Source: Gordius albopunctatus (Eukaryota). Taken from it: a stretch of DNA of 64,000 nucleotides. The position numbers were made by a program, and so were the translations under genes. Each line of letters opens with the position of its first letter. Within the stretch, counting starts at the first letter, position 1. The stretch is from the NCBI GenBank assembly GCA_964276515.1, contig OZ193909.1, positions 7,502,001 to 7,566,000 on the forward strand. Reading direction: 5' to 3'. Of this stretch, positions 1 to 36,400 are shown piece after piece. The notes below the pieces were generated by a model. It was given only the letters and a program-made list of their open reading frames with translations, did no database searches and was not told the origin of the DNA.

Positions 1-19
1 AAACAGGAGAAATTTTTAC

Positions 20-715
20 TTTTACATCCTTCACCCAAAGGGGAATATGTATTTGTTCTTTGCTGGGGATTATTTATTTGTAAGATTATTCACCCAATCT
101 ATGATACTCCAATACTAGTTTATTCACTCCAAAAATTATAATACAACTCCGGACACGGGATATAATTGAAGTATCCGGCAATAAGTGTTAACACCACAAT
201 AATAGCGCGGGAATATAATTTCTAGCGATTACAAGGGGGGGGGATTGGGTTTACAATGGAGAAATTTTCATTCTACGGGAGAAAATCCTATTTCTATGTT
301 TCTCTGCCTAGTATCGATTTTGCTGGGACTTATATAGGTTTCTTTTCTTGGCCTGTGCCTTTATCCTTGAAACTTCTTTTTTTTTGACCCATTTTACCGC
401 GCCAATTTCGTGATGAATGGCCCTTCACTTCCAAGGCTTTTCCACGTCCTTTGGAATCCTCAGCTGACAGTTCTAGGTTTCCCCTACCTTTCTTATGCCA
501 ATTCAATATTTATTACCAGGTGATGTGATACCCTTGCTTCCTTCTGCTACTTCTTTCAGGCCAAGTCTTAATTTACAGCTGTATCCTTGTACTATTTAAC
601 TACCAACCCAAATTTCGGTAACCTTCCCTTTCCCTTCGTTTATTTTTCATCTTATCACGTGCTCCTGCCTTATAAGGGCTGGTTCCCTTTTTAATATTTT
701 CTCATGGATATGACA
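20..715 (-). repeat. 3' LTR of element 1 (696 bp)
   Basis: Minus strand starts TGTCATATCC and ends GGATGTAAAA. Matches 6387-7022 except a 60-bp indel, 2 substitutions and 2 single-base indels that I could see. AATAAA at 119-124 (-). Confidence 0.95.
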
Positions 716-729
716 CCTCCCTTTTCTTC
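716..729 (-). promoter_or_regulatory. Polypurine tract (element 1)
   Basis: GAAGAAAAGGGAGG on the minus strand directly before the 3' LTR TG. Confidence 0.9.
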
Positions 730-913
730 AGGGATCACGTCTCGGGGGGGGGGGTCTTCTGGTTGAGTGTTCACGGTGGTTGGAACAAGTGGTTGGATAG
801 GTGGGTGGAACAGGTGGTTGGGTCAAGTGGTTGGGATCTTCCAATTTCGGTCGTTCGTTTTCTGGTCCTTGTTTAAGGTTTCCTGTTGATATTTTGTTCC
901 TTTCGATGGTCAT
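728..913 (-). CDS. Possible Pro-rich 61-aa accessory ORF ending at the PPT
   Basis: ATG ORF whose TGA overlaps the PPT, preceded by an acceptor-like ttttataatAG (928-927). No recognisable homology. Confidence 0.3.
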   Translation of the reverse strand: MTIERNKISTGNLKQGPENERPKLEDPNHLTQPPVPPTYPTTCSNHREHSTRRPPPPRRDP

Positions 914-1174
914 CGTAGTACGTCACCTATTATAAAATATAAATGCTGCCCGATCCCTAATACAGGATCAGTAGCCATATTCACCTCTACATCAACACCC
1001 TTCTACGTTATAACAACTTTTATTTCCAATCAACACACCAAATTTTCATATTGATATATGGGGAATAATTCTATAAATGACACAGCACACAGGGGATAAT
1101 TTATATCAATAACAGGTCAATCGGGTACATAAATTATATACATCATAGGGCAATTGTCCCTCAAGAGTGGCTTT

Positions 1175-1522
1175 TCACTCCTTCCCTTCTTCCAGTTTGA
1201 AACTCTTTAACCTTTCTCCAATTTCTTCCCACACGTTTGTTGGGGGTCTAGCGTTCGTCTGGGTTTCTACATCCGTCTGGGTCCCTACACTTTTAAAGTT
1301 GTCTTTCTTCTTCGCCTTCTTCACCTTTTCCCTCGTCCATTTCTTCTTAATCCCTCTCGTGGTACACTTTCTTCCCCTGCTCCTCCAGGGGCACGTCTGC
1401 CAGCGATGAGTTCCTCGCTCATCACATATATAACAAATTATTCCTTCGACCTGCACTTCCGACCCATAGTAACACTGCCACGTTCTATGGCTGTCATACT
1501 GCCAGCACACCTTACATTGGAG
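1175..1522 (-). CDS. Post-integrase accessory ORF with two CX2CX5HX4C zinc knuckles and a basic tract; probably exon 2 of a spliced mRNA
   Basis: LQCKVCWQYDSHRTWQC...CYICDERGTHRWQTC followed by a K/R-rich stretch; preceded by tattttattaCAG (AG at 1524-1523). Confidence 0.75.
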   Translation of the reverse strand, partial: LQCKVCWQYDSHRTWQCYYGSEVQVEGIICYICDERGTHRWQTCPWRSRGRKCTTRGIKKKWTREKVKKAKKKDNFKSVGTQTDVETQTNARPPTNVWEEIGERLKSFKLEEGKE

Positions 1523-1549
1523 CTGTAATAAAATAGATTTCCTTAGTCC

Positions 1550-4500
1550 CTACTGGTCTCGTCGCCGTAACTGGTCAATATGCCTCCAAAATTCCTTACC
1601 GTCTTCTATCGTCACTCGACACCTTACCCCTCCTTCTACGGCGATCACTAACCCCTTTACCCACTTACTCGGACCTTGATACATTTTAACCCAAATCGTA
1701 TCCCCTAATTTAAAGCGGGCTGCCCTCCCTAAATAACTCCTTCCCTCTACCCTTCTCAACTCGTCTAGCAATACCCTCCCTCGTCGTCCCAAGAATCTCG
1801 ATGACGGGGACTGGCCATCTCCTTCCTTCGCGTTATTATACATTAACTTCATCGGCCACTGCTCGGATGTCCCCCTTTTCTCCTTAAGAATCCACCCTTT
1901 AACTACTCCCACCATTCTTTCCACCTGCCCGTTGGAACTGGGATGATAGGGTGGGGTGATAATATGTTCTATCCCTTGACTTCCACAAAATTCTTTAAAC
2001 TTTACGCTACTAAATGCTGGACCTCCGTCGGACACTATCAGTTTTGGTAATCCATATCGCGCCAATAGTCCTTTCAATATCCTTATTACAATCCGGGTCG
2101 AACTTCCATTAACCTTTTCGTACTCTACCCATTTAGTACCGGCGTCCACCGCTATAAAATATACCTGCCCTAGACACTCGAAAAAATCTAGATGGACCCT
2201 ATCCCACGGATTTTGTGCCCTAGCCCATTGGCTACCTTTAATTTTGGGTGGCATCGCGGCTATGCTATTGCATGCCTCACATTGCCTGCAGAGATATTCG
2301 CTATCCTTTCTGATATCGGGCCACCAGATATATTCTCGCGCCCATCTCTTCATCTTTACCATACCCTGATGTCCTTTATGTAACTCATTTAACACCTCCT
2401 TCCTTAACACATCGGAGATGATTATCTGTAGACCTTTCATAATACATCCATCCACTATGCTTAATTGCCTTTTGATCTTTTGGTACTTTCTCAGGGCGAG
2501 GGGCCACTCGGCTTCTCCTCGAATACACTGGCCTAATTTCTTTAGTTCGATATCCCTCTCCGTTGCTTCCTTGACATCCATCCAGGAGATTGGTCCTCCG
2601 TCCGATATTCTTAAAATGTATGGTGCATCATTGTTATTATAGTTTTCTTCCATTGAGTCACTGTCTACTTTCTTGTCCTCTCCCTGGTCTTGGGTACCCA
2701 TTCGTGATAATGTATCGGCTATATAATTATCCTTGCCTCTTTTATATTTTATTTCCACTTCAAACGCTCCTATCATTACTAGCCATCTCTATAGTCGAGA
2801 AGATAACATAAGATCGTTGTTATCCTTCTTAAATAATGCTACTAAAGGTTTGTGATCCGTATATAACACAAAAGGTTTGCCTATAATATACTCCCAACAT
2901 TTATGGAGGCCATATACGACGGCTGAGGCTTCTTTCTCGATTACCGAATATCGCAATTCTGGATCTTTAAATTTTCGCGAAAAATACATAACTGGTTTTT
3001 CGTTTCCATCTTCGACCTGTAATAACGCCCCACCGACAGCTTCTTGCGAGGCGTCCACTACTATGTGAGTTTCCTTGCTACTATCAAAACAACTTAATAT
3101 TGGGGGTTTGGTTACACATTCCTTTAAATCCTGGAAACTCCTTTCCACTTCCTCATTCCATTTAAAAATTGTACTACCCTTAATCAGATCATATAAGAGC
3201 CTAGCTCTAGACGCAAAAAGTGGCACATATATATTGTAGTAATTTATTAATCCCAAAAAGGATTGCAGTTCTTTTTTAGAAGCTGGTGCACCAAGGTTAC
3301 TTACTGCCGCGATCTTACTCTCTATGGGCCTAATGGTACCATTTTCGATAATATGCCCCAAATATTCGACTGTATTTACATCAAAAATACACTTTTCTTT
3401 GGACAATCTTAATCCATTGTCATCAATAATTTGTAAAACTTGTCGTAATTTATAATCATGTTCCGCTTGTGTTTTTCCTGCCACTAATAGATCATCTATA
3501 TAATAGAAGACACCTTCTATTCCTCGAAATAATGAATTCATGGCCATCTAAAAGATTGGAGCCGAAATACTTAATCCAAAAGGTAATCTCAAGAACTTAA
3601 ATAGACCTAAATGTGTGTTTATTGCTAGGGCTTGACTCATCTCTTTTGATACCTTCAATTGTAGGTAAGCCGTTACAAAATCTAATTTTGAGAAGTGTTT
3701 ACATCCATTCAACTCCACCAAAATCTCCTCTAAACGCGGCAATGGAAATTTTAGACTCTCAATACAAGGATTTAGAGTGATACGAAAGTCCGCACACAAT
3801 CTCAACTTACCATTAGCCTTCCTTACCGGTACTAAGGGCGTTGCCCAATAACTAAAGGATACCGGTTTGGTTATTCCTTCTTTAACCCACTTGTTTAACT
3901 CCTCCTCTATTTCACTGCGCCATTCATAAGGTACTCTTCGAGCTGAACAAAATTTCGGGGTTACTCCTGGTTTTAATTTCATCGTGGCCTCATAATTTTT
4001 CAAACATCCAAACTCTTTATTGAAAATTCTTGAAAACTCTGCACGAATCTCCTCAAACTTCGCGCCTGTACTCTCTTGCAACATTAACTCCATGTTTATT
4101 AAATCACTACCCGAGGTCGGCTCAGTTCTTATTTTATTCAACCAGTCAACCTCAAAGTTTTGAATCCAGTCCCATCCTAAAATATTATTAACCCTTAGGT
4201 CCGATATATATAATATTAAATTTTTAACAACTCTATTTACGGTTATACGCACGTCGCACTGTCCTATTAATTTTATATTGTCATTATTAAATAGCTTCAC
4301 TTCCAATTTTGACTCTTTAAATAATCCACCGTTACAAATTCTAAACCAATCATCTCTATTAACTACAGTTATGGATGAACCGGTGTCAAATATAAAATTA
4401 AGTTGAATTTTGTTACAGAATATTTTTACGCGGGGAACTGGGTTATTTTTAATTTCCAGCATATTTATGGTAGGAATTTGCATTACTTCGTTTTTTATCG

Positions 4501-5332
4501 ATTTTTGTTTGATAAAATTCCCTAAAAGATCATGATTACGCGGCGATGTTACGTTAAACACTTCCCAATTTCTTTTAATGGGTATTAAAGTTAATTTACA
4601 TTTAGGATAGATAACAGGGGTGGTTTTTGTTGTTGTAAACTCGTTCAATTTTCCATAGTCATACCAATACTCATAAGTTAAAAATAAAAATCTTCGACAC
4701 ATATACTTGTAAAAATTACTCGTGTTGACCTTATCAATTTGCTCGCTACCCTTCCAAGGATTTAAATAAAGGTTCATTTTACTTTTGTTATATTTATTTA
4801 TTTCCATTAAATTATTTCTTCCCTTCCCTATTTTATTTTTGTACTGGGTTTTGCTTTTTGGTACTTTAAAAACGGTAGATTGCATAAATGATTCCAGATT
4901 TAAACGGTCGTAAGTATATTCGCCCAAAACACAAAAATTGGTATTTCCTAACCAATAAAATTTATTCCAGATTTCAAATCGCCAACACGCCCGTGAGTAC
5001 GATTTAATTATATACGTTGGTGGAGTATTAGGAATTTCGAATGGCTTAACCACGATTTCTCGGATCTCCTTTCCAATCGACCTATTCCCAAGATTTTTTA
5101 TCTTTCGACAAACCATCTCTTTATACTCACCCAAAATATATGAAAAATACCCTTTTTGAGTATCTTTATAAAATATACAATTATTTTGTATATTAAAAGT
5201 GTTTTTAGAAGAATAATATTTGTCCCGTTTAAGTGTGTTATGCCTCCCATGTATTTTTAAAGTACCAAACTGCACTATATTTATCATAATTTTAATAAAA
5301 AGTTGCAAACCCAAAAATAATTTGTTCAACAT
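1550..5332 (-). CDS. pol: Pol polyprotein: unknown N-terminal domain + protease + RT + RNase H + integrase, interrupted by two in-frame TAGs
   Basis: ORFs 3548-5332, 2789-3547 and 1550-2776 share one frame. FDTGS protease at ~4385, YIDD, VDAS RNase H, HHCC and D-D-E integrase. TAG at 3548-3550 and 2789-2791. Confidence 0.93.
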
Positions 5333-5691
5333 GTTAAAATTTCTATTAATCCTTTATTAATTTTTTACTATGACCCTTTTACTTTAAATTCTTCATGCTA
5401 ATGATACCTTTTATTATTTTTTTTTTTGATCAAAATCAAAGTTCAACACTAGTAGTCAAAAAATTTTATTTATACATATCAATATTAATATATTTTATGC
5501 AAATTGAACAATAAACATATTATGCAATAAAATCAATAAAATTTATTATAAAAATTGATATTTTATATTATATAACGAATTCGACATAGCAAGCGCAGGG
5601 GGGGGGGTTACGAACATTATGGGGAAGGTGCTAACATTATTTTTTATATTATTAGTAATTGCATATTATTATTAAAATAAAATATAAGTCC

Positions 5692-6027
5692 TTAGGGCTT
5701 ATATTTGGGAAATAACATTTTATTTTTGCAAAATTCAGCATAATGCCCAATATCTCCACAATTTACACATCGGGGAGTGACATAATTATTTTTACTTTGG
5801 TTTGGGGTATGTAATGATGGATTACTTAATTGCTTATTATTAAAATAACAATTACGCTGTAAATGATTTGTGTTTCCGCACGTAAAGCACCTCAATCTCT
5901 TGGTTAATTTATTAACTAACTGTCCAATTAAAATGCCCAATATCAAAATAACAAGGTAATCAATATATTCATATAAATCAACAAACAAATTTCTTAAATA
6001 AAGTCGATTATCGCTTTTACCAAACAT
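5692..6027 (-). CDS. 111-aa ORF: hydrophobic (TM-like) helix plus two CCHC zinc knuckles (nucleocapsid-like)
   Basis: YLVILILGILIGQLV followed by CFTCGNTNHLQRNC and CVNCGDIGHYAEFC; ATG start and TAA stop. Confidence 0.8.
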   Translation of the reverse strand: MFGKSDNRLYLRNLFVDLYEYIDYLVILILGILIGQLVNKLTKRLRCFTCGNTNHLQRNCYFNNKQLSNPSLHTPNQSKNNYVTPRCVNCGDIGHYAEFCKNKMLFPKYKP

Positions 6028-6106
6028 GCTAAAATATATTTTTTAAAATTAATAATTAATGAAATTAATAAAATCACGAAAAATATTATATAATAAATTA
6101 ACATAC

Positions 6107-6139
6107 CTTTTTATAACGCTGGTTTCCGTGTGTGTCCAT
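6107..6139 (-). CDS. Leader mini-exon MDTHGNQRYKK ending at a splice donor
   Basis: gtaATGG start, 11 codons, then AAG|GTATGT (GT at 6106-6105), phase 0. Confidence 0.6.
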
Positions 6140-6207
6140 TACGAATTTCGTCTGTTTTGATCGCGTCTGATTGCGGTTGAGTCTCACGGCTGTGTTTTGT
6201 CCTTTGG

Positions 6208-6379
6208 ATTGCGGCGGTTTTGATTGTGTTGAATCTTAAAGTCGACTTTTGTACGAGTATAACCGGGATTGCAGCGGTTTTGCTTGTGTATAATCTTAAG
6301 TCTTTTGTACGAGTATAACCGGAATTGCGGCGGTTTAGTGTATAATCTTAAGGTCGCCTTTTGTACGAGTATAACCGGG
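6208..6379. repeat. Three ~57-bp tandem repeats in the element 1 leader
   Basis: Unit attgcrgcggttt...aatcttaa...ttttgtacgagtataaccgg x3, abutting the PBS. Confidence 0.9.
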
Positions 6380-6385
6380 GCACCA
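6376..6385 (-). promoter_or_regulatory. Primer-binding site TGGTGCCCCG (elongator tRNA-Met-like)
   Basis: One base after the 5' LTR end; complementary to a ...CGGGGCACCA tRNA 3' end. tRNA identity is from recall. Confidence 0.8.
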
Positions 6386-6386
6386 C

Positions 6387-7022
6387 TTTTACATCCTTCA
6401 CCCAAAGGGGAATATGTATTTGTTCTTTGCTGGGGATTATTTATTTGTAAGATTATTCACCCAATCTATGATACTCCAATACTAGTTTATTCACTCCAAA
6501 AATTATAATACAACTCCGGACACGGGATATAATTGAAGTATCCGGCAATAAGTGTTAACACCACAATAATAGCGCGGGAATATAATTTCTAGCGATTACA
6601 AGGGGGGGGATTGGGTTTACAATGGAGAAATTTTCATTCTACGGGAGAAAATCCTATTTCTATGTTTCTCTGCCTAGTATCGATTTTGCTGGGACTTATA
6701 TAGGTTTCTTTTCTTGGCCTGTGCCTTTATCCTTGAAACTTCTTTTCTTTTTGACCCATTTTACCGCGCCAATTTCGTGATGAATGGCCCTTCACTTCCA
6801 AGGCTTTTCCACGTCCTTTGGAATCCTCAGCTGACAGTTCTAGGTTTCCCCTACCTTTCTTATGCCAATTCAATATTTATTACCAGGTGATGTGATACCC
6901 TTGCTTCCTTCTGCTACTTCTTTCAGGCCAAGTCTTAATTTATAGCTGTATTCTTGTACTATTTAACTACCAACCCAAATTTCGGCTGGTTCCCTTTTTA
7001 ATATTTTCTCATGGATATGACA
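6387..7022 (-). repeat. 5' LTR of element 1 (636 bp)
   Basis: Direct repeat of 20-715; TATATAA candidate at 6696-6702 (-). Confidence 0.95.
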
Positions 7023-7197
7023 ATGTTGTATAAATTTTTCTTAAATGTCGAGACGAGACGAGAATTCTCGCCAAGATGAGACGAGACCGAGATTTTTCTT
7101 GACCGAGACGAGACGAGATCGAGATTTTTATAATCGCTCCCGAAACGAGACGAGATTTTTGCTTTCGAGACCGAGACGAGATGAGATCGAAACACTA
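7023..7197. mobile_element. Right end of a non-autonomous hAT (GAGAC-repeat family) interrupted by element 1
   Basis: CGAGA/GAGAC arrays ending aaacacta. Bases 1-19 joined to 7023 onward align with 41629-41758. Confidence 0.85.
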
Positions 7198-19943: not shown

Positions 19944-22900
19944 TGTAATATATAGCGTAATTTGTAATATCAGTTATATATATATATCATGTGGATAAAA
20001 ATATATGATATGTTTTGAATTAGAATAAACATTCCTAATTAGTAAAGTGGCGCGGTCCCCAAACAAAAATGGAAGGAATACCTCAATATAAGGCAGGTGA
20101 TAACATAAATACATATTTGTTCACTCTTGATAAATAACATATTTGAGTCTAAAAATGTCCTAAAAGAAACTAGAACCAAAACTATCTTGGAATTACTGAT
20201 AAACTTTGTTTATCCATAGAATATATCCTCATTTTAATATGTAGATTTGATCAAATTGATTAAGAAGGTATTCCAAACGAAATCCATTATATTTCAAGCA
20301 AGACTAAACTTTATCAGATGCGTAAAACAAGTAGATGAATCGTTAATTGAATATGTTTCTAGATTGAAAGCTTCTGTAGAATGTTGTCATTTTAAATCGT
20401 TGGATGAACGATTGCGTGATCAATTTTTAAATGGATTACATAATCCACAATTAGAGAGAGATGTTAGAGCAAGATGGCCGGATGCTCTTAAGCATACTGG
20501 ACTAGAAGTGACATTTAATTATATTTATAATTTAGCTGAATCAATGCATCTTGCGAATAATTTTAAAAGCTTGTGGAAATCGTACAATACCAATTAATGG
20601 AGAAACTTTACTCAAGGTATGTTGCAATAATAAAATAATGAAATTACCAGCCGTTGTGACAACTTCGGAGTAAGAACCTATTTTTGGTTTAAATTGGATA
20701 GAAGCTTTTAACCTAAAACTTCCTCATCAAGTTAAGATTAATGCTATAGAAAAAAACCTCAAAATATAGAAGAAGAATTGGTTGAAAAGTATACCAATGT
20801 GTTCATTGATGGCATTGGCTGTATTAAAGATTATGAGGTAAATCTTTTTGTAAAAGAAGAAACCAAAGACATGGCATTTCCTGCACAAAGAGTTCCTTTT
20901 CCTTTAAGGAATAAAGTTAAAGAGAAAATTAAAAGATTATTGGACGAAGATATAATTGAACATGTTGATCCTGCAACAACACCAATAACATGGGCAACTC
21001 CAATAGTAAATGTATAAAAATCAAATAATTCCATTAGAATCTGCTGCGATTTTTGAGTTACTATCAATCCCTTCCTAACTTTAAACAACCATCTACTTCC
21101 GACATTTGACGATTTAATTCTGAAGATCGCAGGAGGGCAGAAATATAGTGTAATTGACTTACGTGATGCCTATCTTCAGATAAAGGTCGAAGAAAAGTCG
21201 CGACATTATCTCACTATCGCAACACATTTAGGTTATTATCGATATAAACGTCTTCCATTTGGACTTTCGATAGCACCAAATTTATTCCAACGTTATATGG
21301 AGGAATAATTAGATGGGATTCCCCATACCGGCGTACTTCTAGACGATATCATAGTTACAGGGGTAAATAAAAATGACCACCTGCAAAATCTGAACGAAGT
21401 ACTAAAGAGGGTACAGGACGCTGGTCTAAAAGCAAAGAAATAAAAGGTTAAATTTTTCCAAAATTCAGTTAAATACTTTGGACATGTGATCGATGCAACA
21501 GGGATCCACCCGACTCAAGAGCGAGTGGAAGCCATTGTTAATTTCAAATAACCACAAAACAAAAAAGAACTAAGTTCCTTTTTAGGACTAATTAATTATC
21601 AGGAAAGGTTCATCCCAATGCTACACGAAAAATGCGCGCCCTTGTATGCATTGACGGGGTCATCATAGGTTGGAAATGGACGACTAAAGAGCAGAAGATT
21701 TTTAACGATGTTAAACTGATGCTTTCAACGTCCAATACTTTGGTACCGTATTCAACCTCATTGCCGTCATACCTAGCGGTAGATGTCTCTGAAACTGTTA
21801 AAGGTGCTGTACTATCACACTTTATATGCAGACGGGTCTGAAAGAGCTATTGCGTACGCATGCAGGACGTTAAGCGAGTCCGAAAAACTATACTCTACAA
21901 TTGATCGGGAACCGCGAGCCATTGTGTTCGGTGTTCAAAAATTCAATACGTACGTGGTCGAAAATTTGTATTGATGACGGATCACAAACCTCTAGAAAGA
22001 TTATTCGGAAATCATCGGGATTTACCGAAAGTGATCCATAATAGATTAATTCGATGGGCTTTATTTTTAAATGGATATCAATACGACATAAAATACCGAT
22101 CAGGAAAGACCAATCAATGTGCTGATGCATTGTCGAGACTGCCAGGTCCAAAATACTTTGAGACGGATCAGATCAATCACGTAGGACTACTCATGTTAGA
22201 TGAATTAAAGTTAGATTATGAAATGCTAAAAACATCAATTAAACAAGATCCTTTTTGTCGTGAATTAATTTTAGCGATCAACCGAGAATGGCGGTTGGAT
22301 TTAGAAAAATGCCGTTTTGACATGAAAACGTACTACAATCGAAGGGAGGAACTGTCATTCAAAGATGGATTATTATTGCATAGAAATCGGTTAATAATAC
22401 CGAGGAACTTACAAAAGTTGGTTTTAAAAATATTACACCAAGGACACCCCGGTATTACAGGAATGCTTAATTTAGCCCGATATTATGTTTGGTGGCCGGA
22501 AATGGACAAGAATATTGATTTGTTTGTAAAGGAATGTGACTGTTGTCAAGAAGGCCAACAAGCCGAACAAGAAGTTCCCTTATATTCTTGGTCCGTACCT
22601 TACCGTCCTTGGGATCCAGTCCACATAGATATTGCTGGATCTGTCGAAGGAAATTATTGGTTGGTTTTAATTGATGCATTATCGAAATGGGTGGAGGTAG
22701 CCACACTATCGTCGATTAAAGGATCACAAATTGTGAGGCAGTTACGAAATTGATTTTGCAAGTTCGGTACTCCCTTGCAAATAGTATCAGACAATGGACC
22801 ACAATTTGTCGATGAAGAATTCACAAAATTTTGTGACAACAACAACATTAAGCACGTAACATCAACTCCATACCACCCCAAAACAAATGAATCGGCTGAG

Positions 22901-23601
22901 AGAATGATTCGAACGCTAAAATCAAGATACTGGGCAGCAAGAAAATCAGGGGGAGAGAAAGAATTATGCCTTCAACAAATAATTATGACATACAGGAATA
23001 AACCTCAGACAATCACGGGTAAAGCTCCGGCGCAATTGTTGTTGGGAAGAAGAGTAAGGAGAGGGTTGGACCTTATTCGACCAGATCCAAAAGAAAAGTG
23101 GAAGGAGAGATTAACTAAACAAAAGAGCTACCATTACCGAAAAGCGTGTTATAGGGAATTTAATGTAGGAGATCCAGTATGGGGCGAAATGAAATTAAAG
23201 CGGGCTGGTACAAAGGATTTATCATAGAACGTAAAGGCCCATATTCATATAATGTTCGCACTGATAAAAGAATTAAAAGGAAACACGCGGATCAGTTAAA
23301 ATTTAGGATGAAATCCCAGTTCGTCGAAACTAACGATACTAGTCTGCAACCGAATGTTGAAAAGGTTGCAAGTCCGAATACTAGTCTGGAAACGAATGTT
23401 GAAAAAGTTGCAAGTCCGATTACGTTAAGACGATCGACTAGAACGTCAAAACCACCTGTACGATTCTACGAGGAAGTTCACGTTTAAAATAGGGAGAAAT
23501 GTAATATATAGCGTAATTTGTATTATCAGTTATATATATACCATGTGGATAAAAATATATAATATGTTTTGAATCAGAATAAACATTTCCTAATTAGTAA
23601 A
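19944..23601 (+). mobile_element. Degenerate Mag-like Ty3/Gypsy LTR retrotransposon with short LTRs
   Basis: LTRs 19944-20046 and 23500-23601; 5-bp TSD ATAAG; PBS TGGCGCGGTC at 20048; PPT before 23500. Gag capsid-like segment (ESLIEYVSRLK...LRDQFLNG), RT (LLDD), RH and IN with stops and frameshifts; knuckles and most of the protease missing near 20600. Confidence 0.96.
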
Positions 23602-23916
23602 ATAAGATTAAGCGCAGGATGATAAATTTGAAAAACTTTCTACACATCTTGAATTTTCTTAAATAATTATTTGTTAAGGATAAGGACTCGGGTGTTCCTG
23701 CATAATCTTTCTGCAATAAATCATTAGTTTTTAATAAATTATAAAAGCCTTCATCATATGTATTAGAGACCTGCCGACCCACGGGACAGACCTGGAAGGG
23801 CCGTAGTATAAACAATCGTGCTTGGGCAGGGCTAGATCTACGTAAGACCCATTGAAAGTCCGTTACAAAATCAATTATATTTTTATTTGAGTCTTATAAA
23901 ATTTAAATCAAAGGTG

Positions 23917-25470
23917 TATTTTTATATGCTAGGTCGTGAGAAAAGCCACGATTGACGATCTCCACACTGAAAGATTTATTTAAAGTCAACATTATGCCTT
24001 TAAGCTTAAACTGCGCCTCGGCTATTTTTTTAAAAAAAACTTATTTTTATATGCTAGGTCATGAGAAAAGCCACGATTGACGATCCCACGCTGAAAGGTT
24101 TATTTAAAGCCAACCTTATGCCTTTAAGCTTAAACTGCGCCTCGGCTATTTTTCAAAAAACGTATTTTTATATGCTAGGTCATGAGAAAAGCCACGATTG
24201 ACGATCTCCACACTGAAAGGTTTATTTAAAGTCAACCTTATGCCTTTTAGTTTAAACTGCGCCTCGGCTATTTTTAAAAAAACAATGGACCAAATATTAG
24301 GAGGCATCAAGGGAGTAGCAGTATACATCGACAATATTCTATTGGCAGGTGAAATTGAAGAATTCCCCAACGAAAGGCCACTCAAGGTACTAGAAACTTT
24401 ACGAAATTCGGAGTTCGTACCAAACATAACAAAAGCACCTTGTGGGCTAAGCAAGTTAATCAGCAACAAAGGGATTAAAATCAACAGTAATAAAACCCAA
24501 CTAATAACAGAATGGAAAAAATGGACAAATAAAAATGAAATTAAATTGTTTCTTGGGTTAACATTTTTTCAAAGTTCATTAGAAACTACGCCAAAATCGT
24601 GCACTATTCAAAAACTCATGAAAAAAATCTGATCTACCACTGGGGTGGAACAAGCCGAAGCTATCAAGCCTCGCGTACTAAGATGCCCGTGCTAGCATAC
24701 TTTAATGGAGATTTGGAGACAGGCCTGGTCGTAGATGCATCTGGTACAGGGCTGAGGTCTATCTTATAACAACGAGTGCCAGGGGAAAATTAGAGAATGG
24801 CGGCATATAGTCAAGATCGTAGAGCGATAATGAAAGCTGATATTCAACGATTGAACGGAAGGCGCTGGCGGTGATCTAAGGGCTAAAAAAGTTAAATGAA
24901 TATATATAGGGACGAAGCATTACCATTCTGATGGATCATATACTTTATATATTTGATCTAAGCAAAGGGGGCAAGGAAAAATCGTTGCCACGATTAACTA
25001 GGTGAGCACTCATGGTATCAGCTTACACGACACAGTTTAAGTACAATGGATCAGAAAACGCGGCAGATATCTTATCCAGAAATAAGAACAAACACGCATA
25101 TCATGTTAGCGAGGATATACTAGAAGACTCTACAAATCCATTTATATCATTGGACGTCATACCTTGGACGATTCAGGGTTACGTCAGTGAAAAGAGTGGA
25201 TAAGAGAGAAACAAAACACGATTGTCACTTATGGGCTAAACGCCACTACGAAAAACACTTCCCCAAAAAACATATCATTTTACAAAGGGCGACAAACATT
25301 AAATTCGGCTAAATTAAGAGGAGCCGTTTTCCAAAGACAACATAGGGTCCACGTGGGATCAAGCCAACGCAAAAAGTGGCATGGCAGTATATATGGTGGC
25401 CGCTCTCGAGTCTCGACGATGACTTATTGAGCTTAGCAAAAGGCTGCCGAAGTTGCAATTACACTGCCGC
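23917..25470 (+). pseudogene. Highly decayed Gypsy pol relic with a triplicated ~122-bp segment
   Basis: MPFSLNCASAIF..MDQIL.GIKGVAVYIDN, VDASG, YSTIERKALAV, NAADILSR and YIWWP remnants; repeat units start at 23917, 24042 and 24163. Confidence 0.85.
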
Positions 25471-27433: not shown

Positions 27434-30400
27434 TTAAACCATAGTTTCATGTTGTTTGCCTTCCTCAAATATTCTTAGTTGATGCAATTTAAAGGCCTTT
27501 TCATTTATAAAAGATTGAGAACGATTCTTTTTGCCCGATGTTTTAATCCTAAAATTGTTCCGACGTCTATTTTGACGTGTTCTTTTGGGAATTCCATTGG
27601 TTCCTTGCTTAATCGGCACATAATGTACGAAAGGACACCACCTGAAGGCACTTTTAAATCCTTGACGAAATCTAAATTAATGTTAAATCACTTTAAGGCT
27701 AATATTTGTTTAAATTAAATGACATATTCATAAATAATATATTAATGATTACTTAATGTTTAGCCAGTAATAAATCAACGGATTATACATGGAATTACTC
27801 ATGCCAATCCAGTAAAGTATTAAAAATATATGTTGAGTCGCTTTGTGATTTGTAACATAAGGATATATTTTTTGAATCAAAAAGTAGGTTTGGTAGGGTA
27901 AATAGCACAATGCAAATATCAATGTAACAAGGATCATCATTTTCACAACCTAATTAAAAAAAATTGTTTATGTTCTTATATTTTATTAAATGTCTAATGT
28001 CTTACCCTTCTCTTGGACTTGATATTTGATAGTTGCTTTTCTGTTTCTTCCCCTATTAACTCGCTCCACCATAGACTGAGGCCAATTTTGATATAAACTA
28101 TGGCTAGAATTATAACAGGCACGAAGTAAGTTGAGATCATTAGAAACAATTCGTACCTTAAAGATGCAAGTATAAAACAAAAAACATTACTTCCTTCATA
28201 AATAATTCATTTTAATTTAAAGTAACGGTCAGGTATTTAAAAATAAATAATCTTTTATAGCTGAAACTTATAAAGATTAATTATTAATTACTCTATTAAT
28301 AAAATATCAGTTGTCTGAAATAGTGGCTTAAACTATATTATTCGATTTTAATGAGTATTAATGTCTATTTATATAATTCATTTATTATAAAAATCATTTT
28401 ATAAATAAATTGTATTTGTTCTTTAGAAGTCAAAACGCAGACTATTCCTTTTTATCAAACGTGTTTAAAACCAGATTTTAAATTTTATATTAGGATTTTA
28501 ATTTATGCACCAACACAAATGAGTGATCAGAATGTATTATTTATATTTTAACTTAAAAAAAATTAAATTTCCTGCATATAATGAGTTACTAAATTAATTT
28601 AAACCATTGATAACTTAAAAGATGTTTCATCAATTAATCAAGCACACCTAAATGTATTATTGTCTCATATAAACGCCTTATATATTTTAACGAGATTTTA
28701 GCCAATTATCTTTACATGACTTATTTTTTATTTAAATAATTTTAAATACTGCTTACAAGTCAGTGATTAAAAGTGACTAAAATTTAATAATATCATAAAC
28801 CGTTTGTTCTTCATGCTTTTTTAATGATTACCCTAAGGATGCGGATCCATTTAGTTCTAGGTAACACACAGTTCTTTTAGAATTGTCTTGATATACCCAC
28901 GTGTAAGTTTTGGAATATAGAATGTATGGTAATGATATAATAAACGAAACCGTCCATATAATGACTATGGTGATTACACCTTTTTTGAGGCTAAGTTTTT
29001 TGTGCAACACGTGAACTAATGCAAAATACCTATAAATAAAATTATTTTGTTTTAGATAGTATAAAATGAATTCGTAGACGTTCATCTTATTATATTAATT
29101 TTTTAATTTATACATCTTTACATATATATATGCCTTATATTCTTATTTATAAATTTTGTTCAAAGCATTATACTATATTCGACTTATAATTATTCAAAGG
29201 GAAATACTAGGATAAGCATCATTTTTTTGTTTACGCTTTATAGAAATTATGGTATTATTCCGATAAATCCATGGTATACAGCATTTTAATTCTTTATATT
29301 ATAGTTTTGCTATCTCCAGATAACTCCCTAACCATAAAAATATTTTTTCCTATAGCTGTTTGTAACATTTAGTGGTCAGCTCCTTCAAGTAGGTTCTCCA
29401 TGTATTCCTGCACTTACACCAGCTTCGCTTTAGCTCGTACCTTCTCAAGTCCATATCAATTTTATACTTCCATGTCAATTAGGCCTCCCTCTCTTTCGCT
29501 TACCTTCGACTTGCACTTTCTTGATATGATTTGCCAAGTGACTTTTCTCGCGTCTCTCCAAATGGTCATACCATCTCAATCTTCTTACCACCAACTTTCT
29601 CTGAATCGGAACTACATTTAGTTTATCCCTTATGTCTTGATTCTTTATATGGTCTTTTTTGCTTATTCTCATGATCCATCTCAACATTCGCATCTCCATT
29701 GTAGCAAAGCTTTGGTCCTATTTTGCCTTAATTGCCCAGATTTCAGCTCTATACAATACCGTGGGTACAATAACGGTGCGTCCTTTCAATTTGGGTGGTA
29801 TGTGCTTGTCACATAGGAAACCACTCAACTCCCTGAATTTTAGCCAGCCTTCGTTTATTCTTGCCTTAATTTCGTTTTCCACACTTCCATCACATTGTAC
29901 CCTAGAACCAAGATATTTTAATTCTTTCCTGCTGCTTAAACACCAGTCATCGATTTGCAGGTATGCTTCTTTGTATTCATTCCCCGAATCCAAGCATACA
30001 TATTCCGTTTTATCTCGGTTGACCCTAAGGCCTTTGCTTTCAATTCGTTCCATCCACACTTTCACCTGCTCTGCTAATTCCACGTTTGAGCCTGCGCAAA
30101 GGACGATATCATCCGCAAAGAGCATTGCCCAAAGTGATTCGCGTTTCAGGTTCTTCGTTATCGAATCAATTATTCCTATGAAGAGCAATGAATTTAAGGG
30201 CGATCCTTGATGCGCACCGACATTTAGACTGAATCCCGTACTTTGGTTTTTGCGTTTCTATACATATCCTTTATTAACATTATATAAGCCTCGGGTACAG
30301 CATTGGAACTCAGGCTATCCCATATCAACTGCCTTGGCACTTTATCGAAAGCTTTCTCAAGATCGATAAAATACATATGAAGATCCTTTTGTTTTTCCTT

Positions 30401-33400
30401 ATATACTTCCATAAGTCTCCAAAGACCATGTATTGCATCTGAAGTCGACTTTCTAGGCATGGACCCAAATTTTTGTTCATCTATTAATATTATTTTTTAA
30501 AGTCTAGCTTCTATAACTTTTTCCCAGACCTTCATTACGTGACTTGTTAACTTTATCCCTCGATAGTTGTTGCATTCTTGTACATCTCCCTTCATTTTAT
30601 AGATAGGTATAACATAACATAGCTTTCCCTCCACTCATCAGGCATCATACCACTTGCAAGTATTTTGTTAAACAGCTTTGCAAGTAGATGTACACCCAAG
30701 GGTCCTAGCATTTTGAAAGCTTCCATAGGTTTATTATCAGGTCCTGCCGCTCTACCAATGTTGATATTTTTAAGCACCTGGTCAACATCTTCTTCTGTCA
30801 CTTCTAACTCTGGGTCATATTTATAGTTGTTGCTATCGCAGTAGTCCAAAAACCCATTTTCATTGTTTAATAATTCTTTATAGTATTCTTCCCAACGATC
30901 TATGATTTGATGGTCCAGAGTTAGAGTGATGCCATCTTTGCTCTTTATGGTTTTCACGTTTACTACATCCTTTGAGTTCCTTGGCCTGGTCTTTGCGATT
31001 TTGTAGATCATTCTATTCAAATTATCGTAGACCTCTGTTTTAGCCTTGGCTACACAACGCTTTGCCTCATTTTTAGCTTTCACATATGCTAATAGTGTTT
31101 CCTCATTTCTGTTACCTGACCATAATTTGTAAAGCTTTCTTTTCAATTTGACCAGGCGTTGCACGTCTTCGTTCAACTACCATGTCTCCTTATCTTTTTG
31201 TAAACCTGGTTTACCTTCTCCTAGAACACACCTCGTTACTAATCTTACCGTGTCAGCTATGTTATTCCACATATAGTTAGCATTCTGCTGATCATCTATT
31301 TGCAGCCGTTCAACTATTTGATCATTGTAAATATCTTTCAATTTTGGTAGCCGGAACCATTTGATTTTCCCATTTAATCTCTTCGATTTTTGTGTTTTTG
31401 CCTTGGAGATGGTATAGTCCATCACAACAAGTCTATACTGGGCTGCAATAATCTCGTACATTCTTTAATTCCTTTCTTGATATTAGGAAAAAGTCCATCT
31501 GCGAAGATCGATTTCCACTTTTGTACGTTATTAGGGGATTTACATTCTTTTTGAAGAAGGTATTTGTGATAGCCAAATCAAATGCAACGGTTATTTTCAA
31601 TATTTCGTCGCCCTCATCGTTTCTCCCTCCATATCCATTCCCACCATGGTACCGTTCAAATCCTTCTCTTGTTTTGCCTACGTGACTATTCATATCTGCT
31701 CCAATTATAACTATCTCGGCTCCGGTTATCATTCGCAACATTTCGTCTAATTCTTCCCATTCCTCATTTTTTCATCTGTGCATCCTGTTTGCGGAGCATA
31801 TCCGGAAACTACATTAATCATTTAACCTTCTATGCATAGTTTCAACATCATGAGTCGCCCACTTTTTCTTTGTACCTCAATGACTTTATCTTCCAGGTGT
31901 GAGGCTAGTATCATTGCCACGCTATTTTTATTCGTTTCAAGGCCATTGAAGTAAAGTTTATAGCCTTCAACTATCATCCTTGCTTTTACGCCTTTCCATC
32001 TTGTTTCCTGTATACACGCTATATCGTCTTGTCGCTTGCTGAGGGTGTCACCAACTTATCGGCATTTTGCAGTCATCGTTCCAACATTTAGCGAGCCTAC
32101 TCTCAATCTCGTCCTTAGCAAACTTGTTTCTTTAACTACGTCCGTTTGCGGAAGATGTAGTGACCCTCGTTGACTTTCACATGATACGGGCGCCTGCCAT
32201 GCGTGTCGTTTACGGAGGACGCCCTAGTGCTTTCATTACTTTCATTATTACAAACTTTAATAGCACTTGGATCAAGGGTGACGCTCGGCTATCCAGCCCT
32301 GACAGCCGTGTTGACGATGTGAGATATTTTTAAACTTTGAAATAAATGCCGGAGGTGGAATCGAACCGGCAACCTCGCGCTTCAAAGTCTAAACTTATAC
32401 CCACTACACCACCACGCCCCACTCCATTACCATAAAAATAAGTTAGCTTAATTACATCAAATTTGAATGCATAGCTGCTGCAAGATATAGATCAATTATG
32501 CAGATAATACATATGCCAACTATATAATTAACTTTTTAGCCATGTAACAATTACTATAAAATATTTTTACGAGGGTAAAAATTCCAAAATTCATTATATC
32601 AAATAGTAAATAACTTTTAAAAAATGATAATAAAATTATAGTTGGCAAATCTTTGAATATATAAAGCATGGGTAGAAACAATAAACTGAATTATGCTGAT
32701 ATGTAAAAAGTATCATAATATTTCTTAAAAAGGACATGAATTGTCTTAATAATCAATCATAAATTCGCAATAGGTCTCAAGATGTCAATATATATATATA
32801 TATATATTGAATTGATTTTGATTTATAGGATAAATTAATGGTAGATATTTGAATAGCTTCCTTGAAATGTGAAAAAAATATAATGTTAACAAAGGTAGTC
32901 ATTTTGGCTTTAAAACTGACTAAAGATGAACAGATAAGTCGCAAAAGGATAACGATAAAAAACCATTATGACGTTATACATAGGTCGGGTGAATATATTT
33001 AAGGAATAAAATATTGTTAAAGATCATTGTATAACGAAAAAAATCTGTGTGTTTAATTAAAGTAGTACAAGTCGTTCATAAAAAACATTAAAAATTTAAT
33101 TAATTTAAGAAGTGAGTGAAGATAAAATAAACCCAATTAATGAGCTTTTCAAAATATTTACATTAAATTTTGTTAAAATAATTCATTTAATTAAATTATT
33201 GTTTTTTAAAGAAAATGAGGAATATTTTAATTTGTAGACTTTACAATTTGATTTATTCCTTAAAACTAATGATATTTTTGAAGCATTCGTTAAATGCATT
33301 AGCTTAATTGTAAAGCGTTCCACACCGATTTTATTGTGGTAAATTTGAGTTAATACAATATATCACAAATAAAACGCAGGTCTACAAAAAAACCATTTAG

Positions 33401-36400
33401 CAATCGGACCTATAATTATGATAGAGAATTTTTTAGTTTTTCCCAAAACCTCCTCCCTTTCTCCTTTATTTCCACTCCCGCCCCCATATCTAGCCAAGCA
33501 CACAAGAATTGGGGGGGGGGGATTAATGGGAGGGTAAGTGAAGGTAGGGAGTTATGCTTTATTAAACAACGCATGCCTAATATGTACCCTAATTTACTCC
33601 GTTTTCCAGACATTGCGGGACGAATTTTGATAAGGGGAAGGGGGTACACGTAAACGCGACTAAATTTAAATTTAGAGATAAAAACTAAAATTATGGACAT
33701 ATACACTTAAAAATATAGGTTTAACAAAAAATATTAAAAAATGGACCTATGGAAGAAAGTTTAGTCTAAAGAAATATATTGATATTCTTAAATATATAAA
33801 AAATGCCGCGGGAATATAACCTCAAAAAAGGTTAACACGGGAATTTTTGCACCCTCAACCTTGTTTATTTAAAAACCTTGAAGTTTTAGAAAAAAAACTA
33901 AAACATTTTATTATTCAGCACAAATTCTTTATCAGAATTATTGGTCTGATTGCGAGATTAAATCACAAAATTAATATTTTTTAAACTTGTGTTTAAATAT
34001 ATATAAACCCATTACTTATTTGACCTAATTAATTTGTTTAAATAGAAAAGCAATAGAATAATTTGAAAAGCAAATAAACTTTTAAATATGCAATCTGTTT
34101 TTCAAAGTTAAATCAATTCATTTTAAACATAAATAAAAATTTAATATGTTTATTTTAGTGCATCTTAAAAAATCATACATCATAGCATAAGTATGGATCT
34201 TTATATCATTATAACTTTTATAACATATTATGTCTAAAAGTAGCTTTTGATAAATTTCTGTCATCATATTATGTCATTACCACACTTCAAGTCATAACTA
34301 AAGTGAACCTGTAGCACTGATCTTGCAATCTCAAGGACTCGTGATTCCCACAAAATCATCTCGAGTCTTATGATAGGAAAAAATTGTTTAGCCTTATTAA
34401 AAACAATCCTTATATTAGTATGTAAAAGTTGATTATACACAACATAAGTGTCATACATGACCCCTGATCTTATCAACCTACCGAAATAGCACTTAAGTGT
34501 ATGACAAATGTTTGAACATTGCAAAAAGGTCTCAAAATACATTTGTTATGTTAAGACAAAATATACTTTGAAATAACAATTTGTAGTATAACACATTACT
34601 GATACGCGAATTGAATGAATATTAATCCAAGAGCAACAGTTGAAACTATATAAACAGTCATCGTAGGTTCAATAATATGCATTTATATAGACTAGACTAA
34701 GTTGCTACAAATTAAATTTATTATAGAATAAAATAAATGATAATTATAATCCATATCTATTTGAAAACATAATTGTTAGTTTAACATACCTAGCAGTTTA
34801 AATCAAGGCTATTATAAAATATAGTAAAGAGCTTTATGTTTTTTAATATAATTTAAAATCGATATTTACCAAATGAATTAATTTAAACGGAAGTTAGTTA
34901 TATAATTACTGAGACAAGTGGATTAATGCTTTATATTAGAACCGTTTTATTTTCTAATTTCGAGTTAAGCACTGGTTTTAAATTTATATCATTAACTTGT
35001 ATATATATTACTGCATCGAAGCTAGTACTTTTAAAATTAAAAGTTAAAAAAAATGTAAATGTTGTTTTACTTTATTACTTGCAATCATGCGATTGGCCAT
35101 CTTTATTTGAAGAATAATAAATTCTTTTCCGTTCATATATCCAAAATTTGGTTTTTGATTTAAACCATATGTAAATTAGTATATTAAAAAAATAATCTAC
35201 ATGAATATATTACTATTTCTCACTAAATATTAAAAATACTGTGACAATATAGCCCCAAAAAGGGTTAAAAGGGGCATTTTTAGCACCTTCAACCTCGTTT
35301 ATCTAACAAATTCGTAATTTTAGTAAAAACTAAAAACAGATTATTTTTCAGCGCAAAATTCTCTATCAGAATTATTGGTCGGATTGCGGGATGTAATCAC
35401 AAAGTCAATATTGTTTAGTAAATTGATTTTTAATGTAAACTTTTAGATAATCAGGATATAGCCAACTTTTTTAAGCAAATATGGTTGGCTGCTGATGGCC
35501 TATAAGTGTGCCGGGCATGAATGGCTTGTAATTGAGAAAAAATAAGGGTCGGGCTTGGACGGGCTTTAAGGTAACCAAACGGGCCCGGGCCGGAATCAAC
35601 TATAAGTAGAACCGGTTCCGCGCACCAAAATTATTAAATAATGGCTTTATTATAAGAAATAATGTGTTTTTTATGATCTTTACAATTTCCATCATAATTT
35701 TTCCATATAACTGTTGTCTTAAAAAAATAAATCCCTAACAATTTTATTTTTAAATAAGGTTGATAATTAACACAACTTGGTAATTTTTGTTCAATAAATT
35801 AACCTTGCATACAGTTCCCAATCATACTTAACATAAATGGTGCAGCTAAAAGTGCTACTAGTTGAGGTTGCATGGCGGGTCCTTTGTTGGAAGAAATAAA
35901 AACCCGTTTGAGATTATGATTTTTAGCGTGATTATTATTGAACATTTTTAACACAATTAACCCCCCCCCCTTTGGGCGATCATATCTACGCTACTGACTG
36001 ATATATATTTTTAACAAATTTAATAATATTATTTATCAACAAATTTTGGACCCACTTTAGGCAATCCTGCCTGTATACGCCATTAAAATCTATCTATTTT
36101 TTGACTCAAATTTAACTAACGCATTGCCAAATTTATTACCCAATATTGGTGGACTTCTTAATTAAAACACAGGTGGGGTATATGTGTTATAAGCGTTGCC
36201 ATATAAGTTGGCTTCAACTATCATATCGTTATCAGAGACCAGAAATGCCCGGCCCACTGCCCGGCCCGCACGACCCGGCCCACGGGCCGGGCCGCGCAAC
36301 TGCCTTAAATTTTAATTTTCGGGCGGGCACGCTGATAAGATTCGGGCAATTCGGGCATGCCCAAAATTTTATCAAATTATTCCTTGAAAAAAGATAAATT

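Follow-up and report, generated by a model that had tools for sequence, protein, structure and literature searches.

A 7-kb LTR retrotransposon on the minus strand of the 64-kb window (the whole stretch of DNA analysed here) has, directly behind pol, a third open frame, ORF3, which is probably a new accessory gene distinct from env. The reading that we favour, with a probability of roughly 45%, is that ORF3 is a third gene expressed from a spliced subgenomic mRNA (6107|6106 to 1523|1522) and codes for a 126-aa accessory protein that binds nucleic acid. Under this reading an 11-codon leader ORF, which ends at the donor 6107|6106, would be spliced to the acceptor 1523|1522 and would thereby lend a start codon to the Met-less ORF3. 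The predicted 126-aa product would bind zinc and RNA or DNA, as suggested by its Cys/His pattern and its basic stretch.

The element and its pol gene

The LTRs, the polypurine tract, the PBS-like word and the order PR-RT-RNase H-IN assign the element to Ty3/gypsy (Metaviridae), where it is Mag-like; the two LTRs are about 99% alike. Its main features are the following:

6385..7022, minus strand: 5' LTR, starting with TGTCAT; 602 nt are 99.3% identical to the 3' LTR and 39 nt are 100% identical
6702, minus strand: TATA-like TATATAA in the 5' LTR
6491 and 6445, minus strand: AATAAA in the 5' LTR
6368..6385, minus strand: putative PBS-like word TGGTGCCCCGGTTATACT, initiated by TGG, directly behind the 5' LTR
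6208..6379, minus strand: leader tandem repeat, three units of about 56 nt each
5692..6027, minus strand: ORF1, 111 aa, with two canonical CX2CX4HX4C knuckles (PF00098, E 1e-6)
1550..5332, minus strand: ORF2 (pol), an orphan 294-aa N-terminal part followed by PR, RT, RNase H and IN
3550-3548 and 2791-2789, minus strand: premature in-frame TAGs in pol
1552-1550, minus strand: natural pol stop TAG
716..729, minus strand: polypurine tract GAAGAAAAGGGAGG, adjoining the 3' LTR
18..715, minus strand: 3' LTR, with 60 extra nt (619-676)

The 64-kb window contains no further copy of the family and no tRNA gene, and a target-site duplication was looked for at the element and not found. The family is present at high copy number in two public contig sets; it is young and recently amplified. 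The host genome is AT-rich and animal, with its nearest proteins in a horsehair worm.

Pfam recognises Asp_protease_2 (weakly), RVT_1, RT_RNaseH_2 (E 1e-29), Integrase_H2C2 (7e-13) and rve (4e-10) in pol, and no capsid family in either ORF1 or the 294-aa N-terminal part of ORF2. The latter is an orphan, and its AlphaFold2 single-sequence model (mean pLDDT 34.5) is too poor for a structure search. An intron joining ORF1 to ORF2 was considered and set aside, none of the 21 in-phase GT..AG pairs being compelling. Searches at E up to 1e-10 recovered 68 relatives of pol, the nearest being Mag-like (K02A2.6-like) proteins and not named errantiviruses; none of the 68 has a knuckle behind the integrase. 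The closest is 47% identical over 827 aa and ends within 2 residues of TAG 1552-1550.

Our comparison with other copies rests on the best-supported 40 of 529 differences between the window copy and the family contigs. Both internal pol TAGs are among these 40, and at the first base of each nearly all other family contigs have another letter; both are thus private to the window copy, which is dead because of these two premature stops. TAG 1552-1550 is absent from the same 40 differences, and it appears that pol really ends there, before ORF3. Twenty-nine of the 40 lie in pol, where they are spread 10/9/10 over the codon positions, the expectation for neutral decay after insertion, and this even spread implies that the open state of ORF3 reflects the source element. 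These data also bear on the notion that TAG is a sense codon in the host and that 5353-1175 is a single polyprotein, which would make sense of three in-frame TAGs in a run of 1392 codons that is otherwise free of stops and frameshifts. This notion is almost certainly wrong, given that the internal TAGs are private, that pol of the closest relative ends at the third TAG, that the 670 host codons of the window include no TAG, and that reading TAA as sense too would yield only 13 more codons.

The third open frame

ORF3 and its parts are as follows:

1549-1175, minus strand: ORF3 as an open frame, 124 open codons behind the pol stop, lacking Met
1175..1522, minus strand: predicted exon 2, 115 codons (1522-1178) and TGA 1177-1175, in the same frame as pol
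1472..1516, minus strand: knuckle 1, CKVCWQYDSHRTWQC, CX2CX5HX4C
1391..1435, minus strand: knuckle 2, CYICDERGTHRWQTC, CX2CX5HX4C
1298..1387, minus strand: basic stretch, 15 K/R in 30 residues

The initial annotation had described an exon with no ATG of its own, a basic tail and two knuckles with CX2CX5HX4C spacing in place of the retroviral CX2CX4HX4C, and all of this is borne out by the rows above. In a six-frame scan of the 64-kb window the x5 motif occurs only in the ORF3 pair, and the canonical x4 motif only twice, in ORF1. Among 200000 residue shuffles of ORF3 two motifs were obtained in none and one motif in 34; the frame stayed open in 0 of 5000 dinucleotide shuffles, and an open run of at least 124 codons appeared in 10 of 2000 shuffles of the 834-nt post-pol stretch. 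Chance can hence account for neither the open frame nor the motif pair.

Several further lines of evidence point in the same direction. The base composition of ORF3 is like that of the integrase part and unlike that of the downstream spacer. Scored with a codon table derived from pol, its own frame is the best one, leading by 0.215 bit per codon, where the lead in the non-coding spacer is 0.046. Against the coding reading, the margin of ORF3 is smaller than that of any of the 28 cross-validated pol windows (0.259-0.651). Over 1186-1659 the family contigs give a depth similar to that over pol, and one diverged contig can be aligned gap-free over 1275-1397 and is of equal length over 1398-1547. 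Taken together, ORF3 looks like a real coding region.

Predicted splice signals and competing routes of expression

The signals from which the spliced message is predicted, and a second candidate intron that shares their donor, are these:

6107..6139, minus strand: leader mini-ORF, the predicted exon 1; ATG 6139-6137 (context gtaATGG) and 10 codons, MDTHGNQRYKK
6101..6109, minus strand: predicted 5' splice site AAG|GTATGT, cut at 6107|6106, 8/9 matches to MAG|GTRAGT
1523..1549, minus strand: 27 nt from the pol stop to the predicted acceptor, with a branch-like ACTAAG (1547-1542) and the T-rich tract TCTATTTTATTACAG
6029..6106, minus strand: candidate leader mini-intron, 78 nt, about 20% GC, GTATGT...TATTTTAG

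Splicing from the leader to ORF3 is the best-supported candidate route because the donor and the acceptor stand out and are in phase. A donor score of 8/9 is reached by only 2 of the 311 GT sites in the element interior. Ranked by T content in the 14 nt upstream, the acceptor (8 T) falls within the top 9 of 319 AG sites, and no other site in that group has C at -3 (CAG). The 11-codon exon ending at phase 0 in the donor, as initially annotated, can be read directly on the minus strand, and the ACTAAG and T-rich tract of the acceptor that had been placed about 25 nt past the integrase stop are present, within the 27 nt that separate TAG 1552-1550 from the cut. The proposed total of 126 aa likewise stands (11 + 115 codons), with both junctions at phase 0. 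Counting ATGs from the end of the LTR, that at 6139 comes first, but counting from the TATA-like box at 6702 it comes third; if left unspliced, the leader mini-ORF stops after 13 codons. It speaks against the predicted donor that each of the four host introns that could be mapped in the window starts with a GTAA-type donor instead of GTAT. Two features escaped the initial annotation, namely that pol and ORF3 share a frame with one TAG between them and that a host-like acceptor lies 78 nt from the same leader donor.

The shared frame counts against the splice model, which does not require it. It would instead be expected if ORF3 were a C-terminal extension of Pol made by partial readthrough of TAG 1552-1550, a less likely but live alternative under which the product would be an integrase whose tail carries zinc knuckles and basic residues, e.g. 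for targeting or nucleic-acid binding. The two frames are separated only by one TAG and nine open codons, ORF3 lacks its own start codon, the composition of the integrase part continues into it, and in 42 of the 68 relatives pol runs on past the position at which it stops in this element, into a tail with a common basic motif. A frame is, however, shared by chance in one case out of three, and against a profile of the relatives' tails ORF3 scores -1.1 bit, which places it about 1018th among the 1513 sequences given a score by HMMER out of ORF3 and 2000 shuffles. Readthrough also leaves the T-rich tract and the CAG just before the first Cys unexplained. Expression of gag-pol by stop-codon readthrough is of the murine leukaemia virus type. 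The element resembles that system in having a single in-frame UAG followed by G between two frames, and differs from it in that the junction is pol-ORF3 rather than gag-pol and that no stable downstream structure is predicted: in terms of secondary structure without pseudoknots, the 141 nt that span and follow the TAG have no advantage over shuffled sequences (z +0.85; 161 of 200 fold at least as well). The profile score of -1.1 bit also led us to reject the idea that ORF3 is homologous to the pol tail of the relatives.

The donor of the splice model has a nearer partner in the host-like TTTTAG at 6030-6029, which alone could be the reason for its presence. It is conceivable, if rather improbable, that the donor serves only the 78-nt mini-intron 6106-6029 and that ORF3 is untranslated, in which case the 3' untranslated part of the element would carry it as a relic of recent date or as a knuckle fragment that was captured. 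The GC content of 6139-6028, which includes the candidate intron, is 20%; the intron ends in TATTTTAG, and its 78 nt are in line with two host introns of about 55 and 84 nt. Its excision removes the out-of-frame ATG 6104 and joins the leader only to HVW and a stop (...KK+HVW), giving no long frame. That no database searched contains a homologue of ORF3, and that its codon-usage margin falls short of every pol window, would also suit a relic. Against this, the open frame and doubled motif are far beyond chance, the stretch has pol-like depth in the family, and a relic would be expected to decay in a lineage that gave rise to so many young copies.

A predicted orphan protein in the env position

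A phmmer search of ORF3 against 1.84 billion representative proteins gave no credible homologue; two matches were to repeat proteins without knuckles and were judged spurious. A word search for near-length homologues returned one candidate and none that scored, and pattern matches in metagenome contigs (93) and viral contigs (5) yielded 0 confirmed cases in either set. The profile search on the knuckle pair that had been proposed with the initial annotation failed to place it: Pfam returned 0 families at E up to 10, with zf-CCHC (PF00098) among those unmatched, and PDB sequences gave nothing at the same threshold. Language-model neighbours include zf-CCHC/Gag clusters at scores of 0.79-0.83, all below the 0.9 from which such neighbours were counted. 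The x5/x4 spacing is absent among the knuckles listed for the 68 pol relatives. Literature searches found no report of a zinc-knuckle ORF3 or, under two spellings, of a knuckle with x5 spacing, and nothing relevant on nematomorph transposable elements. A fold of its own would fit such an orphan sequence; the AlphaFold2 single-sequence model of the product (mean pLDDT 45.2) is uninformative and too poor for a structure search.

Earlier reports describe spliced messages as the typical route of expression for ORF3s of LTR elements (PMC5408684, PMC4276936), as for env of errantiviruses such as gypsy of Drosophila, an ORF3 behind pol that is made from a spliced subgenomic mRNA (PMC4276936). The present element shares with these the third frame directly behind pol, the predicted leader donor and the predicted acceptor just past the pol stop, and the label "env-style" given initially is apt in regard to position. 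It does not extend to the product, which is small (126 aa), basic, without a match to any family, env families included, and is not an envelope glycoprotein, for which a signal peptide, a fusion peptide and a transmembrane anchor would be expected; no long hydrophobic stretch was seen in it by eye. The Mag-like affinity of pol is a further difference from the errantiviruses.

An ORF3 need not be env, as PMC5718144 indicates. According to PMC5718144 and PMC5408684, the ORF3s of bdelloid rotifer elements include a DEDDy exonuclease and a GDSL esterase/lipase, and extra ORFs are described in plant Ty3/gypsy elements. The predicted gene is like these in being a non-env accessory gene in the env position, of a type reportedly made from spliced messages, and is unlike the bdelloid examples in that it specifies a small orphan Cys/His protein with no enzyme domain. 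Genes gained behind pol are the means by which LTR retrotransposons became viruses (env) or acquired enzymes. If ORF3 is expressed, by splicing or by readthrough, the post-pol genes would gain a nucleic-acid-binding regulator or chaperone, encoded by an orphan zinc-knuckle gene without a start codon, in an animal lineage that has been little studied and in a family recently amplified to high copy number. Such a gene would further imply that such elements keep introns, and that retrovirus-like subgenomic expression occurs outside the insect errantiviruses.

The nucleocapsid zinc knuckles of retroviruses and retrotransposons (PF00098) offer a parallel, in that they too comprise a pair of Cys-Cys-His-Cys units with a basic stretch behind them. 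The ORF3 knuckles are distinguished from these by an additional residue that separates the second Cys from the His, by the lack of the Gly-His signature and by their location behind pol instead of in gag, ORF1 already having two canonical knuckles. Our favoured guess is that the ORF3 product might be a second protein of nucleocapsid type, acting as an RNA chaperone or aiding in packaging.

A bolder and quite improbable version of the splice model is that the element has a "complex retrovirus" layout within the invertebrate Metaviridae, in which a small spliced regulator borrows the leader AUG and acts Rev-like on its own RNA. Such a protein would unite the new knuckle type with a basic stretch for RNA binding and, at its C terminus, an amphipathic helix, and would export the element RNA or select between its spliced and unspliced forms. 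The basic stretch expected of a Rev/Rex-like adaptor is present in ORF3. The segment IGERLKSFKL fits the hydrophobic x3-x2-x1 pattern, which we take to be that of a leucine-rich export signal, as do segments in 2640 of 20000 shuffles. A helix is predicted, at low confidence, at residues 97-106 of the product.

The element carrying the start-less frame

ORF3, the Met-less frame behind the pol stop (1549-1175, minus strand), and the splice sites proposed for its expression all lie within a single minus-strand LTR retrotransposon, which contains three frames between its LTRs: ORF1, ORF2 (pol) and ORF3.

Features of the retrotransposon (window positions)
7022-6385 and 715-18, minus: LTRs, direct repeats, ~99% identical (99.3% over 602 nt, 100% over a further 39 nt)
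directly behind the 5' LTR, minus: PBS-like word, TGG-initiated (sequence reading)
6027-5692, minus: ORF1, 111 aa, two canonical CX2CX4HX4C knuckles (Pfam zf-CCHC, E 1e-6)
5332-1553, minus: ORF2, with protease, reverse transcriptase, RNase H and integrase domains
729-716, minus: polypurine tract, adjoining the 3' LTR

Pol is closest to Mag-like 'K02A2.6-like' Ty3/gypsy polyproteins from arthropods and other animals, with 68 relatives at E up to 1e-10 in a set of 7529 candidates; the best match comes from the horsehair worm Gordionus sp. (47% identity over 827 aa). ORF1 consists of a hydrophobic stretch and the two canonical knuckles; a 338-nt spacer of 22% GC, with every frame interrupted by stops, separates it from ORF2. 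The N-terminal 294 aa of ORF2 are an orphan region whose hydrophobic first helix is predicted with confidence (pLDDT 86-88); no recognisable capsid was found in the element across ORF1 and this N-terminal part (6027-4450, minus strand). The leader contains three tandem units of ~56 nt (6208-6379, minus strand), and as CCGGTTATACTCGTACAAAAG recurs in each unit and also after the PBS-like TGG, the PBS-proximal region has been triplicated. The 3' LTR has 60 extra bases (619-676) that are absent from the 5' LTR of this otherwise 99% identical pair.

Contigs from two public runs, aligned to positions 1-7100, reach depths in the thousands over the entire element, indicating a high-copy family. Among the best-supported 40 of 529 window-versus-contig differences, 29 fall in pol. 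The three codon positions take 10, 9 and 10 of these; 17 are non-synonymous, 10 are synonymous and 2 sit at stops specific to the window copy, the spectrum expected of neutral decay following insertion. The insertion flanks (6874-7100 and 1-17) are themselves a very high-copy repeat, the last bin having depths of 30599 and 176050 in the two runs. Some contigs connect both flanks without the element, and no target-site duplication is readable at the flanks.

An orphan frame with a pair of zinc knuckles

The initial annotation had predicted that ORF3 is spliced to an 11-codon leader exon, yielding a protein with two atypical knuckles; its coordinates, phases and motifs all proved correct when read directly from the sequence. 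The open frame is not due to chance, as it survived in none of 5000 dinucleotide shuffles, and when the entire 834-nt region behind pol was shuffled 2000 times, only 10 shuffles gave a run of 124 open codons in any of the forward frames. The same holds for the motif pair: ORF3's two CX2CX5HX4C words are the only ones in a six-frame scan of the 64-kb window, and 0/200000 residue shuffles contained two. The base composition (A.35, C.15, G.32, T.18) is like that of the integrase part and unlike that of the downstream spacer. Under the pol codon table ORF3's own frame scores highest of the three; its margin (0.215 bit per codon) exceeds that of the non-coding spacer (0.046), yet falls short of every one of the 28 cross-validated pol windows (0.259-0.651). 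Contig depth across ORF3 resembles that across pol, and one diverged contig aligns without gaps over 1275-1397 (22% mismatches) and is of equal length, though diverged, over the knuckle part (1398-1547). ORF3 thus looks like a regular, faster-evolving component of the family compared with the integrase.

ORF3 had no detectable relative in any search made. A word-based search returned one candidate and none that scored, phmmer against 1.84 billion representative proteins gave two matches, both knuckle-less repeat proteins, and no relatives were confirmed in metagenome or viral contigs. A Pfam search with ORF3 (the initial annotation had suggested a profile search on the knuckle pair) recovered no family at E up to 10, nor did PDB sequences match at that threshold. 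Language-model neighbours, which include Gag/zf-CCHC clusters, scored 0.79-0.86, below the counting threshold of 0.9. A structure model from the single sequence was of poor quality (mean pLDDT 45.2), with a predicted C-terminal helix (residues 97-106) as its sole feature. The C-terminal IGERLKSFKL fits an export-signal-like hydrophobic pattern, which 13% of shuffles (2640/20000) also match.

The two Cys-Cys-His-Cys units are followed by 15 K/R in 30 residues, a composition typical of nucleic-acid-binding knuckle proteins, and such a function may be predicted here. The knuckle spacing differs from that of PF00098 (CX2CX4HX4C). The literature searched yielded no report of a start-less orphan frame with two x5 knuckles, and no match to CX2CX5HX4C when searched as a written spacing. 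Accessory non-env ORF3s are already known in LTR elements, and an ORF3 is not necessarily env (PMC5718144).

The end of pol and the possible expression of ORF3

As ORF3 lacks a Met, its translation would require a start taken from elsewhere, or readthrough. It lies in the same frame as pol, separated from it by TAG 1552-1550, a relationship absent from the initial annotation. A Pol-ORF3 fusion by readthrough of this codon appears unlikely: the one point in its favor is the shared frame, a 1-in-3 event by chance. Downstream of the TAG, predicted RNA folding is no stronger than in shuffled sequence (z +0.85). From sequence comparison the stop looks genuine. The pol of the Gordionus relative terminates within two residues of it, and its absence from the best 40 of 529 differences, which include both premature in-frame TAGs of pol (3550-3548 and 2791-2789), points the same way, as suggestive evidence and not proof. 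These internal TAGs are private to the window copy, the Gordionus relative having a sense residue at both positions. Together with the lack of TAG among 670 host codons and a gain that stays negligible when TAA too is treated as sense, this excludes, to a very small residual probability, a genetic code in which TAG is a sense codon.

A knuckle behind the integrase was found in none of the 68 pol relatives; the knuckles they do have fall within residues 29-430, never with the x5/x4 spacing. In 42 of the 68, pol extends past the TAG-equivalent point into a tail that finishes with a common basic motif (R-R-S-x-R ... K-P-P-x-R-L type), within a few residues of the C-terminus. The possibility that ORF3 is this tail cut off by a stop was rejected: it scored -1.1 bit against the tail profile, ranking about 1018 of 1513 scored in a set of ORF3 and 2000 shuffles, so ORF3 is not simply a stop-truncated pol tail.

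The reading we favor, at a little under even odds (about 45%), is that ORF3 encodes a small nucleic-acid-binding accessory protein translated from a spliced subgenomic RNA, which would borrow the leader start ATG 6139 via a donor at 6107|6106 and an acceptor at 1523|1522. ATG 6139 is the first ATG after the LTR (context gtaATGG), and both predicted junctions are in phase 0. The donor, AAG|GTATGT, matches 8/9 consensus positions, a score reached by just 2 of 311 GT sites in the element interior, and is alone in the 5' part. The acceptor, preceded by 14 nt of which 8 are T, is among the top 9 of 319 AG sites by T-richness and the sole one of these with CAG; the first Cys lies two codons downstream. 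Spliced messages are described for ORF3s of LTR elements (PMC5408684) and for errantiviral env (PMC4276936).

Against the predicted splice, the four host introns mapped in the window have GTAA-type donors and TAG or AAG acceptors. Also against it, a competing acceptor, TATTTTAG, lies 78 nt downstream of the same donor, in a stretch (6139-6028) of 20% GC. This size is compatible with two host mini-introns (~55 and ~84 nt), and the join opens no long frame but removes the out-of-frame ATG 6104; hence the donor may serve the leader alone. That ORF3 is an untranslated relic, with the donor used for such a leader-only intron, is judged improbable.

Host genes and other elements

Two GPCR genes of the animal host lie within the window, one of them a tachykinin-like receptor (27600-46817, minus strand) whose closest relative among the matches listed is from Gordionus (78% over 42% of the query). 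It has at least four introns, with donors GTAAAT, GTAATC, GTAAGA and GTAATC; one of ~17 kb contains retroelement pieces, and two others are the mini-introns of ~55 and 84 nt. Pieces of a second gypsy-like pol and of a non-LTR reverse transcriptase occur at 20772-25080 (plus strand) and 29718-31176 (minus strand), this second pol being unrelated to the present element and ~30% identical to its pol.
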